Positions 1 to 55,571 of a stretch of 55,571 nt of DNA are shown piece after piece (position 1 is the first letter of the stretch; every line of letters starts with the position of its first letter). The position numbers were made by a program, and so were the translations under genes. The stretch is from Escherichia phage vB_EcoM_JL1: sequence record OR791690.1. The stretch is one strand, 5' to 3'. The notes beneath the pieces were generated by a model. The model was not told where the DNA came from, made no database searches, and saw nothing but the letters and a program-made list of their open reading frames with translations.

Positions 1-324
1 GACTTCTTCTCTTCTTTCGAATTCTGATTGAAAGAAAGAAGCATGTCCAAAAGTTCCAATATTACAAAGTTATCTCCCGGCTTGTGGGTGGGCCTTTATA
101 ATAGGAGATGGAGCAATATTGTTGCAATTGAACATGCTTTAGTTGAAGAACAGTTTCGAATGGTAATCCTACTTCACACATGGTTGTTGGAACTTTGTCC
201 GGCCAAAGACAGGGAGTTCAATGATTGCCACATCATTACAACACTGTATGTTTAGTTGACATGCTGAAATGTTTCTAGAATGATTTCAACATGACATGCG
301 GAATACTTCTCCGTATTCTGTTAC

Positions 325-344
325 TTCACATCCAACTAATGTTA
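325..344 (-). promoter_or_regulatory. Phage-promoter-like conserved motif (copy P1)
   Basis: plus ttcacatccaactaatgtta; minus-strand consensus AACATTAGTTGGATTTGAAG shared by about 12 sites. Confidence 0.4.
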
Positions 345-416
345 CAGGTGGCTACAATATTGAAGCCAGCTCTAAGATTAATTGAAACAAGAAAAGGGAG
401 CCGAAGCTCCCAAATA

Positions 417-617
417 TCAGAACGGTATCTCTGTATCGAAATAACCAGAATTGTGCAAATATGCATGCAGTAATACATGCGACTCTTGTTTATATTCTGC
501 TAACAACTCTAAGAAGTCTTTAGTCTCCTCCACTGTAGGACGAGATAAGTTGCTCATGTCACAGGTGTGATGAGGGTTGAAACAGTTTTCGATTTGATTG
601 ATTTGCATGGTATTCAT
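417..617 (-). CDS. Small hypothetical protein (66 aa) ending in SSB-tip-like DTEIPF
   Basis: minus-strand ORF downstream of RNAP gene; C-terminus ...GYFDTEIPF resembles the E. coli SSB tip DDDIPF. Confidence 0.5.
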   Translation of the reverse strand: MNTMQINQIENCFNPHHTCDMSNLSRPTVEETKDFLELLAEYKQESHVLLHAYLHNSGYFDTEIPF

Positions 618-665
618 TATAAGTCTCCAAGTTTGTGGTCATCCTTGACCAATTAGTGTTACTGA

Positions 666-2780
666 TTATTGACAGAAGTAGTAAGCGTGTTCGCTCATCA
701 GAAGCTCTTCAGTTACGATGTTCTCATGATACATCTTGATGCCACCAAGTTGCTTAGACAGATTCTCGAATTGATTGTTGGTTACAAAGATTTCAACATA
801 TGCTGCACGAATAACTTCCATCATACGTGGAGCATCTGCCAAACAGCAACGGAAACAATCATGGATTGAAGTGAAGCCACGAAGACCAGCTTCTTTAGCT
901 TTAACTGCAACAGTACGAGCAACAAGTGCATCAATGCCCTGAATGTAGTTAACAACGAAAGTACGCTTGAATTCTTCTTTAGTTGGATTGGATTCACGAA
1001 TGGTCCAAGGCTTATTCTCCTGAATCTGACCAAAGATAACACGAGTTTGGGAGTCAACACGAATGCTGAATGCCTCACAGATTTCACGAGATGGGAAGCA
1101 AGGCTTCATTACAACCTGACCATCAGTGTGACGATATGTGATGTACTCTTTACCAAGTTCAACACAACGGTTGTATGCAGCATCAGCAGCTTTCTCAATG
1201 AACATGTTAATCTTAGCACCCAATGCGTTATGGATTGCTTCCACACACAGTTCAGCAAATGCCTCAGCTTTCTCCATAGGAATCTGGAGTGCTTCTGTCA
1301 TGTAGCTGATGAAGTCAGAAGAACCAGTCAATGCAGCTTTACCACCACCGTATTGGATAGCCATGTACGGAGTTTTGATAAACTTACGACCAGCTTTCGG
1401 ATTCAAGAATTCATCCATGATTTCAGGAGATGGTTTCATTGAAGACTTGTCCAGCAGCTTCAACAGTTCACGAAGACTCAACTGGTATGGGTCAGATGCT
1501 TTAGTCTCAGAATCAACCAGACCTGTTGCACGAGCCATTTCCATATTACCAGCAATGAATGCCAGATATTGAGTACCAGAACATTTAGCATCTAAGCCAA
1601 AGCCTACACGAGAATCACATTCACCTGTAGTCTCGAACTTGAACCAATCCAGAGCCAGACGAACATAAGTGAATGGCTTGGAAGGACGTTCAGCTTTAGG
1701 CATGTTCATCATGCGAGCAAGTGAACCAGCTGGATTCTGAGCAACATAAGTTAAACGCTTAGCACTGCACCATTCACCACCAGAAATATCTTCCAGCTCT
1801 GCCATAAACATGTTGTATGCAATGGTAGTAGAACCATCTTCGTTAAACTTCTTAACGATGTTCTCAACATTGTGAGAATACAAGCAACGAGCAAAGTCAG
1901 ATGATTGTGGGTTAGGACCAGCACATGCTACATGATACAGACGACCACGGTTATCAGCAAAGTAGTCAGAATACAGTGTGTCCTGATTCATCATTGCTAC
2001 AGCATTGTTCCAAACATGGAGTTCAGTCTGGATTGCTTCTGGCATCTGCAAGCCACCATAGGTACGTTGTTCAAGCATGGACTGAATGATGCGAACCATC
2101 TCAGTCTCCACATGGTACTCAGTATCTTGCAGGAATTCGATTGCAGCTTTCAGAGTTTTGGATGGCTTAACTTTGCCACCTTTAACGAAAGGCTTGCGAC
2201 GAGATTCAGATGTAACACGCTCAGTGAATGGCACTGCGGTATCTTTGGTTGTAACCAGCTCAACCCATGTGTCAGTTTGTTGGAACGACTTATCTTCGTT
2301 CATGGTGATGAAGCCAAAGTGCTTAGCCAGGCCAATGAGGTTGATAGCTGGGTCAACATAGTGCATTGCTTTCAAATCATTGTTGTAACGGTTGGCATCA
2401 GCAATTGAAGCAGAAGCCAGCTCAACCATTGCAATTGCAGGAACAACATCATCACGAGTGAATGAGGTCATCATCTTAAAGATTGCAAGAGCAGCAATAG
2501 CACAGGTCTGAGGTTGCATGTAGTTCTGTTTCTCTTTGGCACGATATACCAGAGCAGTGATAGCAGGGACAACGGATTTGATAGTTTGAGTTGAGATAGT
2601 TGCCATTTTGCGAGTCTCCAATTTAGTTTCGGTTTTAGTTTCGGATTGTGTAGCGGAGGTGATTTCATCTACCATCTGGTTGCAACGGTCCATCGTATCG
2701 AGCACGTCTTTCCAACCGTGGCCTTCTTCTTTTAAGCGAGCACCATCAGCAGCCAGTGTACGATATTCTTCATTAGTCAT
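666..2780 (-). CDS. T7-like single-subunit DNA-dependent RNA polymerase (704 aa, compact)
   Basis: motifs DAKCSGTQYLAF (T7 DGSCSGIQHFSA), KTPYMAIQYGGG, SIHDCF (T7 HDSFGT); ATG at 2780 with GGAGA RBS. Confidence 0.85.
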   Translation of the reverse strand: MTNEEYRTLAADGARLKEEGHGWKDVLDTMDRCNQMVDEITSATQSETKTETKLETRKMATISTQTIKSVVPAITALVYRAKEKQNYMQPQTCAIAALAIFKMMTSFTRDDVVPAIAMVELASASIADANRYNNDLKAMHYVDPAINLIGLAKHFGFITMNEDKSFQQTDTWVELVTTKDTAVPFTERVTSESRRKPFVKGGKVKPSKTLKAAIEFLQDTEYHVETEMVRIIQSMLEQRTYGGLQMPEAIQTELHVWNNAVAMMNQDTLYSDYFADNRGRLYHVACAGPNPQSSDFARCLYSHNVENIVKKFNEDGSTTIAYNMFMAELEDISGGEWCSAKRLTYVAQNPAGSLARMMNMPKAERPSKPFTYVRLALDWFKFETTGECDSRVGFGLDAKCSGTQYLAFIAGNMEMARATGLVDSETKASDPYQLSLRELLKLLDKSSMKPSPEIMDEFLNPKAGRKFIKTPYMAIQYGGGKAALTGSSDFISYMTEALQIPMEKAEAFAELCVEAIHNALGAKINMFIEKAADAAYNRCVELGKEYITYRHTDGQVVMKPCFPSREICEAFSIRVDSQTRVIFGQIQENKPWTIRESNPTKEEFKRTFVVNYIQGIDALVARTVAVKAKEAGLRGFTSIHDCFRCCLADAPRMMEVIRAAYVEIFVTNNQFENLSKQLGGIKMYHENIVTEELLMSEHAYYFCQ

Positions 2781-2842
2781 GATAAAGTCTCCAATTGATT
2801 ATGATTTAACTGAAACGGATTAGACTTGCGTAGCCTATTCAT

Positions 2843-2862
2843 AATCACAACCAACTAATGGT
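2843..2862 (-). promoter_or_regulatory. Phage-promoter-like conserved motif (copy P2), 63 nt upstream of RNAP start
   Basis: plus aatcacaaccaactaatggt. Confidence 0.4.
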
Positions 2863-2995
2863 GAGGTGAGCACACTACAACAGCGTACTCTGATTGCCTT
2901 TGACCTTGACTTATAAGCGAAGCGCCTAACTTGGTGTTGTTTGAAAGCCGATAGGCTGTAGGAAAAAGTTGGAGTAGGGACCGTATTTAAGTCCG

Positions 2996-3424
2996 ATAGG
3001 ACGTTGGGCTTCTGCTCCCCGGCCCCCTAAAAATAAAATTAATATTGCCACAATTCGAGTCTCGTTAATATCGAACAAATTCGAGTCTCCAATATCGTAA
3101 CAATTTTAGTCTCATTAATTCTGTAGCAATATTGAAAATAAAAAAAAAATTATAAAAAAATTATTTCATAGCCAGACAACTGTTCGAACAAATTTCGGCG
3201 AGATAACTTCTCCGAAGGAGATACAGCTGACCGACCATGAACGAATTACTATCCAGGTACAGTTGACCGACCATGTACCATTTGGTTTTGAACTTTACGC
3301 ATTCCTAATATTACTCTTAATATTGTAGCAATATTGGGAATAAATAAATATTTAATTTACTTGTCTTATTCTAGCTCAAAGAGAAACGACGCTAACGCAT
3401 CGAATCTCTTCTCGCATATAATCG
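2996..3424 (-). promoter_or_regulatory. AT-rich non-coding control region between nrdB and RNAP gene, with direct repeats
   Basis: no ORF; three ~25-bp direct repeats (GAGACTCGAATTTGTTCGATATT-like, minus strand), two copies of CATGGTCGGTCARCTGTAYCT, long A/T tract 3131..3170, repeated CAATATTGCTACA. Confidence 0.6.
3149..3179 (-). promoter_or_regulatory. Candidate sigma70-type promoter upstream of RNAP gene
   Basis: minus strand TTGTCT then about 18-19 nt then TATAAT; spacer slightly long. Confidence 0.3.
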
Positions 3425-4525
3425 TTAAAGCTCAAATCCGCCCAGAGCATTGGTGTCCACTTCGGAATCAATCTGCCCGACAAGGTACGAACTAATCTCC
3501 GTTTCTTGTGGAGCAACTTGTACAGCATCCGAATTCAACCATGCGTTAATCCAAGGAATCGGGTTAGTAGCACCTTTGAATGGAGCATCTAATCCAACTG
3601 CTTGCATACGAATATTCGTGATATATTCCACATATCCGCATAGAATTTGCTTGTTTAAGCCAATCATTGAGCCATCTTTGAACAAATAATCAGCCCAATC
3701 TTTCTCTTGTTGGGCCACATTTTCGAACATGAGTTGGCATTCTTGGCGGCATTCTTTAGCAATTTCGGCCATTTCTGGGTCATCAACACCACTTGCAAGA
3801 AGGTTCAGCATGTGTTGAGTTCCAGTCAAATGGAGTGCTTCATCACGAGCAATTAAGCGAATAATCTTGGCATTTCCTTCCATCAACTTGCGTTCAGCGA
3901 AGGCAAATGAACAAGCAAAACTGACATAAAAGCGGATTGCTTCTAGTGCATTAATGGACATGAGGCATAAATATAGCTTCTTCTTAAGCTCACGAATAGA
4001 AACCTCATCTTCATGCAGATGCCACATGGAAGTTAGGTGTTGAAGTTCGTCATAATATTGGGAGATGCCGATTGCACGCATTTTAATATGCTCATTCTCC
4101 ACAATTTCATCGAAAATGACACTCGGGTCTGTAACAATATTACGAATAATATGCGTGTAAGAACGGGAGTGAATTGTCTCTGAGAAGGACCAAGTTTCAA
4201 TCCAAGTTTCCAGCTCAGGAATGCTCACAATTGGCAGCAAAACTGTGGTTGGTCCACGTCCCTGAATGGAGTCAAGCAAGATTTGATAGCGCAAATTGCT
4301 GGTGAAGATGTGCTTCTCACATTCAGGCAGACCAGCATAGTCAATTCGGTCCTGGCTAACATCAACCTCTTCAGGTCGCCAAAAGAAAGATAACTGCTTT
4401 TCGATTAACTTCTCGAAGATGCTATACTTCTGTTGGTCATATCGAGCAACGTTAACGTTCTGACCAAAGAACATTGGCTCTAGTAGTTGGTTATTCTTGG
4501 TTTGTGAAAAGGTAGTGTAAGCCAT
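3425..4525 (-). CDS. nrdB: Ribonucleotide reductase class Ia small subunit (NrdB), host-like
   Basis: near-colinear with E. coli NrdB as I recall it ([11 protein letters not shown]..., [32 protein letters not shown]); no NrdA in the window. Confidence 0.9.
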
Positions 4526-14296: not shown

Positions 14297-14369
14297 TGCA
14301 ATATACCTATTGAAATTAATACATATTCAACTAATGTAAAAGGAAAGCTGGGGATTTCTCCCCAACTCC

Positions 14370-49545: not shown

Positions 49546-49608
49546 AAATGCTCCAAGTTAATTAATAATATTCAGCAACCACTCTCATTACAAAAGTGGT
49601 TGAGGAAA

Positions 49609-52070: not shown

Positions 52071-52259
52071 AAATAATGACGCGCCAATCTAATACAATAT
52101 TACCCCGCCAAATGAGATAAATTGCAGCAGATTGGCACGAACATTTGTAGCACTGGAGTTCTGTAGAAGCAGCCAACTTGTTTGTATTTGGCACAAACAG
52201 TTGAATACCTATGTACAGAAAACCGACCATTTAATTAATAAACTAAATGATTTAAATAA

Positions 52260-52520
52260 AGGGTTTTATCCCAATATTGTCACAATATTACATGCGATGA
52301 TAAAGCCTTCGCTTGGCTGGAAGCCAGTATTCATGCGGGTTGCAAGAATATTGGGTTAAATACTACATGCGAATTTGGCACAAATACTGTTACAAAATTA
52401 ACATGCCAGATTGGTAGACGATTGTATCTTCGAGGTGATTAGTCCTCTAACAATTCTGCCACATTCCAACATGCCAATTTGTAGCAATATTTACATGCCA
52501 TACTGCGACAATATTGTCAC
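52260..52520 (-). repeat. Cluster of short repeats in the control region
   Basis: at least five minus-strand copies of YGGCATGTWAATATTG-like motif and two AATATTGTCACAATATT near-palindromes; no ORF. Confidence 0.5.
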
Positions 52521-52992
52521 AATATTTGTTGCTCAAAATCGGGGCGGCAAACGATATTAAATTCGATGCTTTGTCCGACTTCTTCTCTTCTTTCGAATTC
52601 TGATTGAAAGAAAGAAGCATGTCCAAAAGTTCCAATATTACAAAGTTATCTCCCGGCTTGTGGGTGGGCCTTTATAATAGGAGATGGAGCAATATTGTTG
52701 CAATTGAACATGCTTTAGTTGAAGAACAGTTTCGAATGGTAATCCTACTTCACACATGGTTGTTGGAACTTTGTCCGGCCAAAGACAGGGAGTTCAATGA
52801 TTGCCACATCATTACAACACTGTATGTTTAGTTGACATGCTGAAATGTTTCTAGAATGATTTCAACATGACATGCGGAATACTTCTCCGTATTCTGTTAC
52901 TTCACATCCAACTAATGTTACAGGTGGCTACAATATTGAAGCCAGCTCTAAGATTAATTGAAACAAGAAAAGGGAGCCGAAGCTCCCAAATA

Positions 52993-53193
52993 TCAGAACG
53001 GTATCTCTGTATCGAAATAACCAGAATTGTGCAAATATGCATGCAGTAATACATGCGACTCTTGTTTATATTCTGCTAACAACTCTAAGAAGTCTTTAGT
53101 CTCCTCCACTGTAGGACGAGATAAGTTGCTCATGTCACAGGTGTGATGAGGGTTGAAACAGTTTTCGATTTGATTGATTTGCATGGTATTCAT
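52993..53193 (-). CDS. Copy of 417..617 (small protein ending DTEIPF)
   Basis: sequence identity with 417..617. Confidence 0.5.
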   Translation of the reverse strand: MNTMQINQIENCFNPHHTCDMSNLSRPTVEETKDFLELLAEYKQESHVLLHAYLHNSGYFDTEIPF

Positions 53194-53241
53194 TATAAGT
53201 CTCCAAGTTTGTGGTCATCCTTGACCAATTAGTGTTACTGA

Positions 53242-55356
53242 TTATTGACAGAAGTAGTAAGCGTGTTCGCTCATCAGAAGCTCTTCAGTTACGATGTTCT
53301 CATGATACATCTTGATGCCACCAAGTTGCTTAGACAGATTCTCGAATTGATTGTTGGTTACAAAGATTTCAACATATGCTGCACGAATAACTTCCATCAT
53401 ACGTGGAGCATCTGCCAAACAGCAACGGAAACAATCATGGATTGAAGTGAAGCCACGAAGACCAGCTTCTTTAGCTTTAACTGCAACAGTACGAGCAACA
53501 AGTGCATCAATGCCCTGAATGTAGTTAACAACGAAAGTACGCTTGAATTCTTCTTTAGTTGGATTGGATTCACGAATGGTCCAAGGCTTATTCTCCTGAA
53601 TCTGACCAAAGATAACACGAGTTTGGGAGTCAACACGAATGCTGAATGCCTCACAGATTTCACGAGATGGGAAGCAAGGCTTCATTACAACCTGACCATC
53701 AGTGTGACGATATGTGATGTACTCTTTACCAAGTTCAACACAACGGTTGTATGCAGCATCAGCAGCTTTCTCAATGAACATGTTAATCTTAGCACCCAAT
53801 GCGTTATGGATTGCTTCCACACACAGTTCAGCAAATGCCTCAGCTTTCTCCATAGGAATCTGGAGTGCTTCTGTCATGTAGCTGATGAAGTCAGAAGAAC
53901 CAGTCAATGCAGCTTTACCACCACCGTATTGGATAGCCATGTACGGAGTTTTGATAAACTTACGACCAGCTTTCGGATTCAAGAATTCATCCATGATTTC
54001 AGGAGATGGTTTCATTGAAGACTTGTCCAGCAGCTTCAACAGTTCACGAAGACTCAACTGGTATGGGTCAGATGCTTTAGTCTCAGAATCAACCAGACCT
54101 GTTGCACGAGCCATTTCCATATTACCAGCAATGAATGCCAGATATTGAGTACCAGAACATTTAGCATCTAAGCCAAAGCCTACACGAGAATCACATTCAC
54201 CTGTAGTCTCGAACTTGAACCAATCCAGAGCCAGACGAACATAAGTGAATGGCTTGGAAGGACGTTCAGCTTTAGGCATGTTCATCATGCGAGCAAGTGA
54301 ACCAGCTGGATTCTGAGCAACATAAGTTAAACGCTTAGCACTGCACCATTCACCACCAGAAATATCTTCCAGCTCTGCCATAAACATGTTGTATGCAATG
54401 GTAGTAGAACCATCTTCGTTAAACTTCTTAACGATGTTCTCAACATTGTGAGAATACAAGCAACGAGCAAAGTCAGATGATTGTGGGTTAGGACCAGCAC
54501 ATGCTACATGATACAGACGACCACGGTTATCAGCAAAGTAGTCAGAATACAGTGTGTCCTGATTCATCATTGCTACAGCATTGTTCCAAACATGGAGTTC
54601 AGTCTGGATTGCTTCTGGCATCTGCAAGCCACCATAGGTACGTTGTTCAAGCATGGACTGAATGATGCGAACCATCTCAGTCTCCACATGGTACTCAGTA
54701 TCTTGCAGGAATTCGATTGCAGCTTTCAGAGTTTTGGATGGCTTAACTTTGCCACCTTTAACGAAAGGCTTGCGACGAGATTCAGATGTAACACGCTCAG
54801 TGAATGGCACTGCGGTATCTTTGGTTGTAACCAGCTCAACCCATGTGTCAGTTTGTTGGAACGACTTATCTTCGTTCATGGTGATGAAGCCAAAGTGCTT
54901 AGCCAGGCCAATGAGGTTGATAGCTGGGTCAACATAGTGCATTGCTTTCAAATCATTGTTGTAACGGTTGGCATCAGCAATTGAAGCAGAAGCCAGCTCA
55001 ACCATTGCAATTGCAGGAACAACATCATCACGAGTGAATGAGGTCATCATCTTAAAGATTGCAAGAGCAGCAATAGCACAGGTCTGAGGTTGCATGTAGT
55101 TCTGTTTCTCTTTGGCACGATATACCAGAGCAGTGATAGCAGGGACAACGGATTTGATAGTTTGAGTTGAGATAGTTGCCATTTTGCGAGTCTCCAATTT
55201 AGTTTCGGTTTTAGTTTCGGATTGTGTAGCGGAGGTGATTTCATCTACCATCTGGTTGCAACGGTCCATCGTATCGAGCACGTCTTTCCAACCGTGGCCT
55301 TCTTCTTTTAAGCGAGCACCATCAGCAGCCAGTGTACGATATTCTTCATTAGTCAT
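53242..55356 (-). CDS. Copy of T7-like single-subunit RNA polymerase gene
   Basis: identical to 666..2780. Confidence 0.85.
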   Translation of the reverse strand: MTNEEYRTLAADGARLKEEGHGWKDVLDTMDRCNQMVDEITSATQSETKTETKLETRKMATISTQTIKSVVPAITALVYRAKEKQNYMQPQTCAIAALAIFKMMTSFTRDDVVPAIAMVELASASIADANRYNNDLKAMHYVDPAINLIGLAKHFGFITMNEDKSFQQTDTWVELVTTKDTAVPFTERVTSESRRKPFVKGGKVKPSKTLKAAIEFLQDTEYHVETEMVRIIQSMLEQRTYGGLQMPEAIQTELHVWNNAVAMMNQDTLYSDYFADNRGRLYHVACAGPNPQSSDFARCLYSHNVENIVKKFNEDGSTTIAYNMFMAELEDISGGEWCSAKRLTYVAQNPAGSLARMMNMPKAERPSKPFTYVRLALDWFKFETTGECDSRVGFGLDAKCSGTQYLAFIAGNMEMARATGLVDSETKASDPYQLSLRELLKLLDKSSMKPSPEIMDEFLNPKAGRKFIKTPYMAIQYGGGKAALTGSSDFISYMTEALQIPMEKAEAFAELCVEAIHNALGAKINMFIEKAADAAYNRCVELGKEYITYRHTDGQVVMKPCFPSREICEAFSIRVDSQTRVIFGQIQENKPWTIRESNPTKEEFKRTFVVNYIQGIDALVARTVAVKAKEAGLRGFTSIHDCFRCCLADAPRMMEVIRAAYVEIFVTNNQFENLSKQLGGIKMYHENIVTEELLMSEHAYYFCQ

Positions 55357-55571
55357 GATAAAGTCTCCAATTGATTATGATTTAACTGAAACGGATTAGA
55401 CTTGCGTAGCCTATTCATAATCACAACCAACTAATGGTGAGGTGAGCACACTACAACAGCGTACTCTGATTGCCTTTGACCTTGACTTATAAGCGAAGCG
55501 CCTAACTTGGTGTTGTTTGAAAGCCGATAGGCTGTAGGAAAAAGTTGGAGTAGGGACCGTATTTAAGTCCG

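Follow-up and report, generated by a model that had tools for sequence, protein, structure and literature searches.

What does the DNA between nrdB and the RNA polymerase gene do in Escherichia phage vB_EcoM_JL1? The window analyzed here is the whole 55,571-nucleotide sequence of this phage (OR791690.1), and the interval in question, positions 2996–3424, had been described in an earlier note as a control region that could serve as a replication origin, a packaging site, or a host promoter region. Our answer, held tentatively, is that the interval may be an early control region. Operator-like dyads would overlap weak host promoters that feed the gene for a single-subunit, T7-like RNA polymerase (RNAP), and a separate candidate signal for cutting the genome ends lies at 2991–3026.

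A Noncoding Junction at the Edge of the Terminal Repeat

The window spans an entire chasevirus genome (Carltongylesvirus, phiEcoM-GJ1-like) with a unit length of 52,576 bp, written as the reverse complement of the usual convention. Coordinates are given on the plus strand, and motifs are read on the minus strand, which is the coding strand. Positions 1–2995 and 52577–55571 form an exact direct terminal repeat (DTR; 2995/2995 identical). Because of this 2,995-bp end identity, and because the profile issued by ICTV, the international virus-taxonomy committee, describes chasevirus genomes as linear and nonpermuted with terminal repeats of ~3 kb (PMC12842549), we take the window as the whole genome with both DTR copies. 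The interval begins at the first base beyond the DTR (inner boundary 2995/2996), and its flanking genes are both on the minus strand: nrdB at 3425–4525 and RNAP at 666–2780 (Pfam RNA_pol). It is the noncoding junction between the end of a late operon—nrdB and its terminator—and the right-hand DTR copy, in which RNAP is the first gene.

The 644-bp spacer between the two genes (2781–3424) matches 70 phage records; among the 30 best of these 70, nearly all are chaseviruses of Escherichia, Yersinia, Erwinia, and Pectobacterium. Shigella phage 2KOFFS is closest among the matches listed (91% identity), and phiEcoM-GJ1 (GJ1) reaches 79%. Conservation among close relatives was read from a spacer alignment of 12 Carltongylesvirus-type phages; other genera were compared through 4HA13, PM1, Y2, and Myduc. 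The elements on which the argument turns are as follows.

1–2995, minus strand (second copy 52577–55571): DTR, holding the RNAP gene (666–2780), a 66-amino-acid (aa) open reading frame (ORF; 417–617), and phage promoters at 2844–2860 and 325–341 (P1)
2991–3026, minus strand: terminus-proximal signal, a purine-rich GC box GGGGGCCGGGGAGCAGAAGCCC (3026–3005) followed by the hairpin GTCC-TATC-GGAC (3002–2991)
3039–3113, minus strand: three tandem iterons (collectively a3, a4, a5; copies at 3039–3063, 3065–3089, and 3089–3113), unit GAGACT-NN-AATTGT-NN-CRATATT
3039–3068, minus strand: homologue of the "putative host sigma70 promoter" of GJ1, TTAACG (3068–3063), 18-bp spacer, TATTAA (3044–3039)
3117–3133, no strand assigned: dyad a2, AATATTGCTACAGAATT on the minus strand, with two mismatches to the dyad
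3135–3167, no strand assigned: A/T-only tract of 33 bp, whose coding strand holds TATAAT (3154–3149)
3304–3341, no strand assigned: block a1, the perfect dyad AATATTG-CTA-CAATATT (3319–3335) plus a third AATATT
3387–3402, minus strand: terminator-like hairpin, CGATGCGTTAGCGTCG then TTTCTCTTT, directly 3' of the nrdB stop (terminator scan)
52213–52535, minus strand: cluster B, with perfect dyads b1 (52510–52526) and b6 (52273–52289), degenerate dyads between them, an AT-rich stretch, and a copy of motif M2 (52213–52230)

Dyads and Iterons on the Flanks of the Repeat

The 17-bp dyad AATATTG-N3-CAATATT has 18 matches at ≤3 mismatches in the genome, against 5.1 expected, and no shuffle reached 18. 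Perfect copies start at three positions only (3319, 52273, and 52510), all in the two noncoding DTR flanks. These flanks are also the two AATATT-richest 400-bp windows of the genome: the hexamer occurs at 14 per kb in 2996–3424, 16 per kb in 52200–52576, and 0.6 per kb elsewhere, an enrichment of ~25-fold, and a spacing of 11 bp (one helical turn) recurs between hexamers. Dyads cluster likewise in the GJ1 genome. The arrangement has the form of an operator array—dyad-symmetric sites of ~17 bp, several per control region, in two clusters. The earlier note had overlooked the dyad, the end of the terminal repeat at 2995/2996, and the dyads on the far side of the DTR. GJ1 carries an additional perfect a1 dyad, AATATTGCTACAATATT, at 49579–49595 inside a tail-fibre-region gene, with no counterpart in the window.

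Block a1 is near-invariant in the 12 relatives. Its hexamers build a longer inverted repeat, TTCCcAATATT...AATATTaGGAA (DNA fold z = −3.09; 3/200 shuffles equal), and its dyad is invariant in them. Perfect dyads stand at the matching place in 4HA13, Y2, and PM1; 4HA13 and Y2 have the central triplet in the opposite sense, so that its orientation differs among genera. A dyad also adjoins phage promoter P1 in GJ1, Mangalitsa, and SA91KD, in keeping with a general association of dyads with early noncoding DNA.

Three direct repeats of ~25 bp, as the earlier note had it, do occur at 3039–3113, and they are nonrandom: successive copies agree at ≥18/24 bases, a value that 0/1000 first-order Markov simulations of the 644-bp spacer matched (maximum 15). 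The copies show 72–80% identity to the reference copy at spacings of 26 and 24 bp. They are degenerate copies of the dyad, each preceded by an invariant GAGACT. Across the 12 relatives, GAGACT and RATATT are invariant inside the iterons and the triplet between units varies, with copy number running from two (flopper, PYps23T) to four (GJ1); in MLP1, EcoM1, and Bp10, the T-run and GC box are duplicated (55 bp) between the iterons and the cut. Other genera swap the GAGACT module for ACGGCTC (PM1), AGATTCG (Y2), or TAAGTCG(G)TAAG / TAAGTCGTAAG (Myduc, 4HA13). What these genera retain is the CAATATT half-site, along with perfect dyads of the a1 type and the core of M2.

Plastic copy number and local duplications would also suit a region read by no dedicated factor: a curved, AT-rich spacer, perhaps a target of H-NS, whose repeats arose by slippage and duplication. 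The iteron sequence TCGATATTAA resembles TCGATAAATT, the presumed high-affinity H-NS motif. Such an origin would hardly account for perfect 17-bp dyads kept in four genera with different hosts, for an a1 block that stays near-invariant in 12 phages amid varying sequence, or for the invariance of GAGACT within the iterons, and we find it hardly credible.

The dyads and iterons (3039–3341) would most likely be sites for a sequence-specific dimeric protein. Their character as binding sites is suggested by the perfect dyads, by the invariant GAGACT within a would-be promoter spacer, and by a genus-specific outer module joined to a constant CAATATT. Because that outer module changes from genus to genus, the binder would probably be phage-encoded. 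In an informal comparison by eye, none of the sites of CRP, LexA, NrdR, DnaA, FadR, LacI-family proteins, or MatP fitted both half-sites.

Candidate Host Promoters Ahead of the RNA Polymerase Gene

A host promoter should lie within 2781–3386, since the RNAP gene has no noncoding DNA upstream of it other than the spacer (2781–3424), nrdB is closed by a terminator-like hairpin, and the next phage promoter upstream (14320) stands at a distance of 11 kb. The argument also presumes that another polymerase has to make the first RNAP transcript, as would hold if virions bring in no RNAP. The hairpin at 3387–3402 marks the end of the late operon and is near-invariant in the 12 relatives, with a single substitution, in 2KOFFS.

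Two candidate sites fall among the repeats. The weak sigma70-like promoter proposed in the earlier note is present on the coding strand as TTGTCT (3179–3174), a 19-bp spacer, and TATAAT (3154–3149), scoring 8.8–9.7 bits in a weight-matrix scan. Its TATAAT, set within the T runs of the A/T tract, is kept in 12/12 relatives and in Y2 and reads TATAAA in PM1 and Myduc. The other candidate coincides with the last iteron (a5), on whose homologue the GJ1 record (EF460875, same locus at 1–654) annotates a putative host sigma70 promoter at 364–393, TTGACG-18-TATTAT. This site scores 11.5 bits in GJ1 and YSF, above every coding-strand site in the window (maximum 11.06), whereas five further relatives reach 7.5 bits. 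Most relatives keep a −10-like hexamer there, as do other genera (a perfect TATAAT in Y2, TAAAAT in PM1); the −35 varies (TTGACG, TTAACG, TTAATG, TTGGAG), and the would-be spacer holds the invariant GAGACT. The annotation on the homologous GJ1 stretch agrees with the earlier description of the DNA between nrdB and RNAP as a control region.

What the sequences show is the anatomy, its conservation, its place relative to the termini, and the distinctness of the iterons from the phage-RNAP promoter; that a protein binds, that the promoters are active, and in which direction they are regulated is inferred. The dyad and iteron sites would overlap both weak sigma70 elements, namely the A/T-tract TATAAT and, at the last iteron, the promoter of GJ1 type. 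Transcription by host RNA polymerase would begin at these sites and run into the phage RNAP gene, and the bound protein would modulate or shut off this early transcription. The purine-rich box and hairpin at 2991–3026 would form a separate signal for genome-end cutting. We favor regulation over a cutting site of fixed geometry because iteron number ranges from two to four, because a 55-bp duplication can intervene, and because dyads also occur beside P1. In T3 and T7, the E. coli promoters A0–A3 and a phage promoter adjoin the terminal repeat (PMC3276506).

Several results weigh against this reading. The TTGTCT-19-TATAAT site ranks only 11th in the genome by weight matrix, and a separate consensus scan for sigma70 promoters returned no site on the minus strand. 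The last-iteron promoter does not reach the threshold in three phages (that of the window, 2KOFFS, and flopper), whose −10 is TATTAA, without the conserved final T. The left-end RNAP copy has only 215 bp upstream of it, from which the whole control region is absent and in which no convincing promoter appears, and a phage promoter (52053–52069) is already in place for the early genes that follow cluster B, so that host promoters are not obviously needed there. The differing orientation of the a1 central triplet among genera speaks against a role of the dyad itself as a directional promoter. A search of ten small early or pre-terminase proteins (Pfam, PHROGs) found no cognate DNA-binding or initiator family, its hits being of "unknown function" only, and the literature searched contained no transcription-start or binding data for any chasevirus.

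We also compared the dyads with an extended −10 element (TGnNNCAAT) and set that idea aside: on the coding strand a1 fits (TGCTACAAT), b1 and b6 fit less well, and the triplet is flipped in 4HA13 and Y2.

Predicted Phage Promoters Form a Separate Class

The iterons are distinct from the promoters of the phage RNAP. When ≤3 mismatches are allowed, the window matches the predicted GJ1 promoter consensus, CATTAGTTGGATGTGAA, 13 times, or at 11 distinct sites with two duplicated in the DTR, against 0.26 expected. All lie on the coding strand in front of gene blocks, as listed here.

325, 2844, 14320, 34196, 42276, 44243, 44380, 44520, 48297, 48686, and 52053, minus strand: phage promoter sites, extended consensus tctgAAaCATTAGTTGGATGTGAAg

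None falls within 2996–3424; the nearest are 2844–2860, inside the DTR just upstream of the RNAP gene, and 14320–14336. With a different genome-wide consensus and no match in the interval, the iterons were rejected as phage-RNAP promoters. The extended consensus tctgAAaCATTAGTTGGATGTGAAg deserves an experimental test because the ICTV profile lists chasevirus promoters as not identified (PMC12842549).

The Far Flank of the Repeat

Cluster B occupies the other side of the DTR, between the right end of the left copy and phage promoter P2 (52053–52069), upstream of the early genes. It is highly conserved among close relatives and contains six GCATGT-type repeats, all on the coding strand, with a seventh GCATG inside P2; most of its dyads are preceded by GCATGT. 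In five genera, the 650–770 bp after the repeat hold 7–10 GCATG on the coding strand and 0 on the other. The same dyad array lies beyond each end of the DTR, which gives the pair the look of paralogous control regions on either side of the repeat.

This strand bias bears on the possibility that the phage RNAP reads the dyads, as secondary promoter-like or pause sites serving replication or packaging in the manner of T7 phiOR/phiOL or the concatemer-junction pause. On the coding strand, b1 and b6 read AATATTGTGACAATATT, followed by GTCG (b1) or GGGA (b6), which resembles the presumed SP6-type promoter core ATTTAGGTGACACTATAG with a G-start. The phage promoter includes GGATGT, to which the GCATGT of cluster B is similar, and the GCATG of this cluster is strictly coding-strand in five genera. 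The phage promoter nonetheless has a different and far better distributed consensus, with the 11 distinct sites of CATTAGTTGGATGTGAA; the iterons lack both GCATGT and a G-start; and dyad a1, read in that sense, would fire antisense. We regard this possibility as highly improbable.

Further features of the far flank stand apart from that question. A noncoding region of ~1.1 kb over the right DTR boundary (52213–52535 plus 52577–53060) holds 10/19 of the genome's coding-strand GCATGT. The motif GCATGT-N6-GTGACA-ATATT is strictly strand-specific in five genera and likewise resembles the presumed SP6-type promoter core. A sigma54 reading of TGGCATG...TTGC in cluster B was discarded by eye, the GG-to-GC spacing being 12 nt and not 10.

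Candidate Signals at the Genome Ends

The DTR boundary at 2995/2996 falls inside the hairpin GTCC-TATC-GGAC. In conventional orientation (minus strand), the left end of the repeat reads ...GAAGCCCAACGTCCTAT|CGGACTTAAATACGGTCCC, and the terminus sequence GAAGCCCAACGTCCTATCGGACTT(A)AAATACGGTCCCTA is invariant or nearly so in the 12 relatives. The boundary agrees to ≤5 bp with the termini of five phages from five genera: the PhageTerm-annotated repeats of Mangalitsa (3,234 bp) and 4HA13 (3,120 bp) begin 5 bp farther along this sequence; for PM1 (2,665 bp, its record containing both copies), Y2 (2,608 bp), and Myduc (PhageTerm, 3,202 bp), the start is ≤2 bp from the homologous position. In PM1 and Myduc the hairpin is CTCCC-TATC-GGGAG, with two compensatory pair changes. 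The right end of the repeat, ...GAAGAGAAGAAGTC|GGAC, is homologous across the compared phages too. We did not use the published 2,339-bp repeat of PYps23T (MW147598) as a terminus, as its boundaries are not shared with other phages; it runs from one phage-promoter copy to another, with ATTAGTTGGA| at both ends, and these ends are possibly an artefact of method (polymerase chain reaction or template switch).

A purine tract, defined as ≥0.75 purine over 20 nt (the 90th percentile of genome background), is present on the coding strand, no more than 40 nt upstream of the cut, at 14/14 boundaries of seven phages, and 11/14 reach 0.80 (top 4%). Both cuts share this tract together with C|GGAC or the hairpin (14/14); the GAGACT iterons, by contrast, occur on one flank only. 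Because the purine tract precedes the cut at all 14 boundaries, the purine box and hairpin (2996–3026 with 2991–2995) make the most plausible candidate for the end-cutting signal, as judged from sequence comparison.

The interval abuts the virion DNA end (boundary 2995/2996), as a terminase site would, and its repeats could belong to packaging instead: the iterons and dyads would bind the small terminase subunit or an accessory protein and position the nuclease at both DTR ends, and the arrays on the two flanks would together mark out which 3 kb is duplicated. The iterons lie 44–118 bp from the conserved left cut next to an A/T tract that could bend DNA; the perfect dyads stand 324 bp outside one cut and 51 (b1) and 288 bp (b6) outside the other; a1 and b6 have the flank CAATATTGGGA(A)TAA in common, in inverted orientation; and a genus-specific iteron module is usual for packaging-specificity elements. 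In T7, pausing of the polymerase at the concatemer junction recruits the gp18/gp19 terminase (PMC3276506). The element-to-cut geometry is not fixed, however: with two to four iterons and the duplication in MLP1, EcoM1, and Bp10, the iteron-to-cut distance shifts by ~55 bp. GAGACT-type iterons are confined to one flank, dyads also sit inside the DTR beside P1, far from any cut, and a simpler signal, the purine tract followed by C|GGAC or the hairpin, is directly at both cuts in 7/7 phages. No small terminase subunit was recognised among the ten small proteins scanned (Pfam, PHROGs). We consider a packaging role for the repeats rather unlikely; it stays a serious rival because the dyad arrays bracket the repeat.

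It would be an improbable arrangement if the two dyad arrays (3039–3341 and 52273–52526) were boundary elements. One phage protein would then bracket the 3-kb RNAP segment, direct the nuclease to the end signals, and couple early transcription of RNAP to concatemer resolution and repeat duplication. The arrays would in that case amount to a bipartite packaging-specificity module for phages with long DTRs.

Other observations at the termini concern hairpins and a distant relative. The hairpins AGCC-TATC-GGCT (2946–2957) and GTCC-TATC-GGAC (2991–3002) share a loop and lie 45 bp apart at the repeat start, the second spanning the genome end; the first is unchanged in 4/5 genera examined (the PM1 position was not read). 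Positions 1–45 form an inverted repeat with a 12-bp stem, GCTTCTTTCTTTC...GAAAGAAGAGAAG, that ends at the right terminus of the repeat (DNA fold z = −1.74). Aeromonas phage ZPAH14 (OM810291), a distant chasevirus, has a 3,373-bp repeat with purine tracts before both ends, and its flanks carry CATAG(T/G)TA repeats. To judge by these sequences, flank repeats may be a family-wide feature with lineage-specific sequence.

Resemblance to a Replication Origin

The iterons at 3039–3113 and the adjoining A/T tract at 3135–3167 also have the anatomy of an iteron origin. An initiator would bind the iterons and the A/T tract would unwind, as in the lambda origin, or the region would act like the end-proximal secondary origin of T7. 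Three or four direct repeats with internal dyad symmetry beside a 33-bp pure A/T tract, AATATT hexamers paired at the 11-bp spacing of one helical turn, and the conservation of the region fit this view. T7 origins, however, are phage promoters followed by AT-rich DNA, not iterons, and the replication genes here are T7-like (primase-helicase, DNA polymerase, and single-stranded DNA-binding protein, per the GJ1 annotation). The spacer has no phage promoter upstream, the number of iterons differs among relatives, and the scan of ten small proteins contained no initiator-like protein. Cumulative GC skew falls monotonically with no sign switch here, a profile that is uninformative in a genome with all genes on one strand.

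The lambda origin, with four dyad-symmetric iterons and a 40-bp AT-rich region, is alike in form, having symmetric direct repeats beside an A/T tract; it differs from the present case, which has a T7-like replisome, a varying iteron number, and no evident initiator gene in the ten proteins scanned. The origin reading draws only on form, iterons plus an AT tract, and we give it a slim chance. The three functions proposed in the earlier note thus come out unequally: the interval is a control region and does abut a genome-end cut, the best cut signals are at 2991–3026 rather than in the iterons, and an origin is suggested by resemblance only.

Relation to Known Phage Systems

The nearest counterpart is the GJ1 locus, where the elements follow in the same order: a1 dyad, M2 repeats, A/T tract, GAGACT iterons, GC box, and terminus sequence. 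GJ1 differs in its iterons, of which there are four with one disrupted, and in its promoter, which is much better (TTGACG-18-TATTAT vs. TTAACG-18-TATTAA here). Its record mentions neither iterons, dyads, nor terminal repeat, and its genome was formerly thought to be circularly permuted (PMC8762354).

T7 and T3 are alike in their RNAP, in a linear genome with a DTR, and in repeat-rich, promoter-bearing noncoding DNA on both sides. Short repeat arrays next to the 160-bp terminal repeat of T7 were reportedly described by Dunn and Studier in 1983. The present case differs from T7/T3 in that its 3-kb repeat contains the RNAP gene, its flanks carry 17-bp dyads and 25-bp iterons and not 7-bp units, and its left flank lacks a phage promoter. 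In T7, the repeat-flanking regions serve early transcription and concatemer processing (PMC3276506).

A further comparison is with lambda cosB. There, sites R1–R3 and an IHF bend lie next to cosN, and here likewise three or four repeated elements and an A/T-rich, bendable stretch lie ~50–150 bp from an end-making site. The spacing to the cut is not conserved here, the product is the end of a 3-kb repeat and not a 12-nt cohesive end, and the elements stand on that side of the left cut which faces away from the repeat.

The locus and its putative host promoter (GJ1), the iterons, labelled just "repeat_region" in the phage flopper record, and the terminal repeats of several relatives are already known. 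In the literature searched, we found no description of the both-flank dyad, the genus-specific iterons, or the hairpin and purine-tract signal at both cuts, and no functional study of chasevirus promoters or repeats; the papers searched said nothing on the mechanism that generates the long chasevirus repeats. The region is an expected, better-resolved type of phage control region, comparable to the T7 repeat flanks, and not a new kind of system.

In chaseviruses, a myovirus particle goes together with an RNA polymerase like that of T7 and with terminal repeats of 3 kb, and three processes meet at this locus: the opening of the transcription programme, presumably as the host transcribes RNAP; the close of the late operon; and genome-end cutting. 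The comparison yields testable elements—the 17-bp dyad on both flanks, the genus-specific iterons, and the hairpin with purine tract at both cuts—that would help in engineering chaseviruses, which are therapeutic candidates, and in annotating their termini.

Other Features of the Spacer and Repeat

Three further elements complete the inventory of the interval.

3257–3274 and 3221–3238, minus strand: two copies of motif M2, ATGGTCGGTCARCTGTAY / CATGGTCGGTCARCTGTAY (repeat family search)
3210–3220, no strand assigned: hairpin CTCC-TTCG-GGAG, UUCG-type, part of an 18-bp in-frame insertion flanked by TATCTC direct repeats
3161–3274, minus strand: small ORF of 37 aa, MVGQLYL...AEICSNSCLAMK, starting in the first M2 copy

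Both CATGGTCGGTCARCTGTAY copies listed in the earlier note were recovered, against a chance expectation of 0.10, as was its CTCC-TTCG-GGAG hairpin; its A/T tract is real and pure over ~3135–3167, the wider span of 3131–3170 given there including one G and one C. M2 has a third, weaker copy at 52213–52230. Its core, GGTCGGTYNNCNGT, occurs on both DTR flanks in five genera, and the first copy is invariant or nearly so in the 12 relatives. On the far flank M2 lies 42 bp past dyad b6, vs. 44 bp between a1 and M2 here.

In the 12-relative alignment, the TTCG hairpin insertion is found only in the window and Bp10, with one at a different M2 copy in SA91KD; its fold is unexceptional (z = −0.78). A search of the whole window for structured RNA and tRNA gave no match (Rfam gathering thresholds, ARAGORN).

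Whether the candidate 37-aa ORF codes for protein is uncertain. It is open in 12/12 Carltongylesvirus-type relatives (19–37 aa, with indels in frame) and annotated as hypothetical in flopper and 2KOFFS; it has no Shine–Dalgarno sequence, and its ATG is absent from other genera. Two "CATGGTCGG..." repeats within it encode the repeated peptide (M/T)(V/I)GQLYL.

Inside the DTR, the RNAP leader (2781–2995) exists as two sequence types in close relatives, that of the window, 2KOFFS, Bp10, and Mangalitsa vs. a GJ1 type with TATTATAAT, and the RNAP gene has two N-terminal lengths, 704 and ~646 aa. A strong terminator-like hairpin, GGGAGCTTCGGCTCCC then TTTTCTT, lies at 342–412 on the minus strand, after the 66-aa ORF and just upstream of phage promoter P1.

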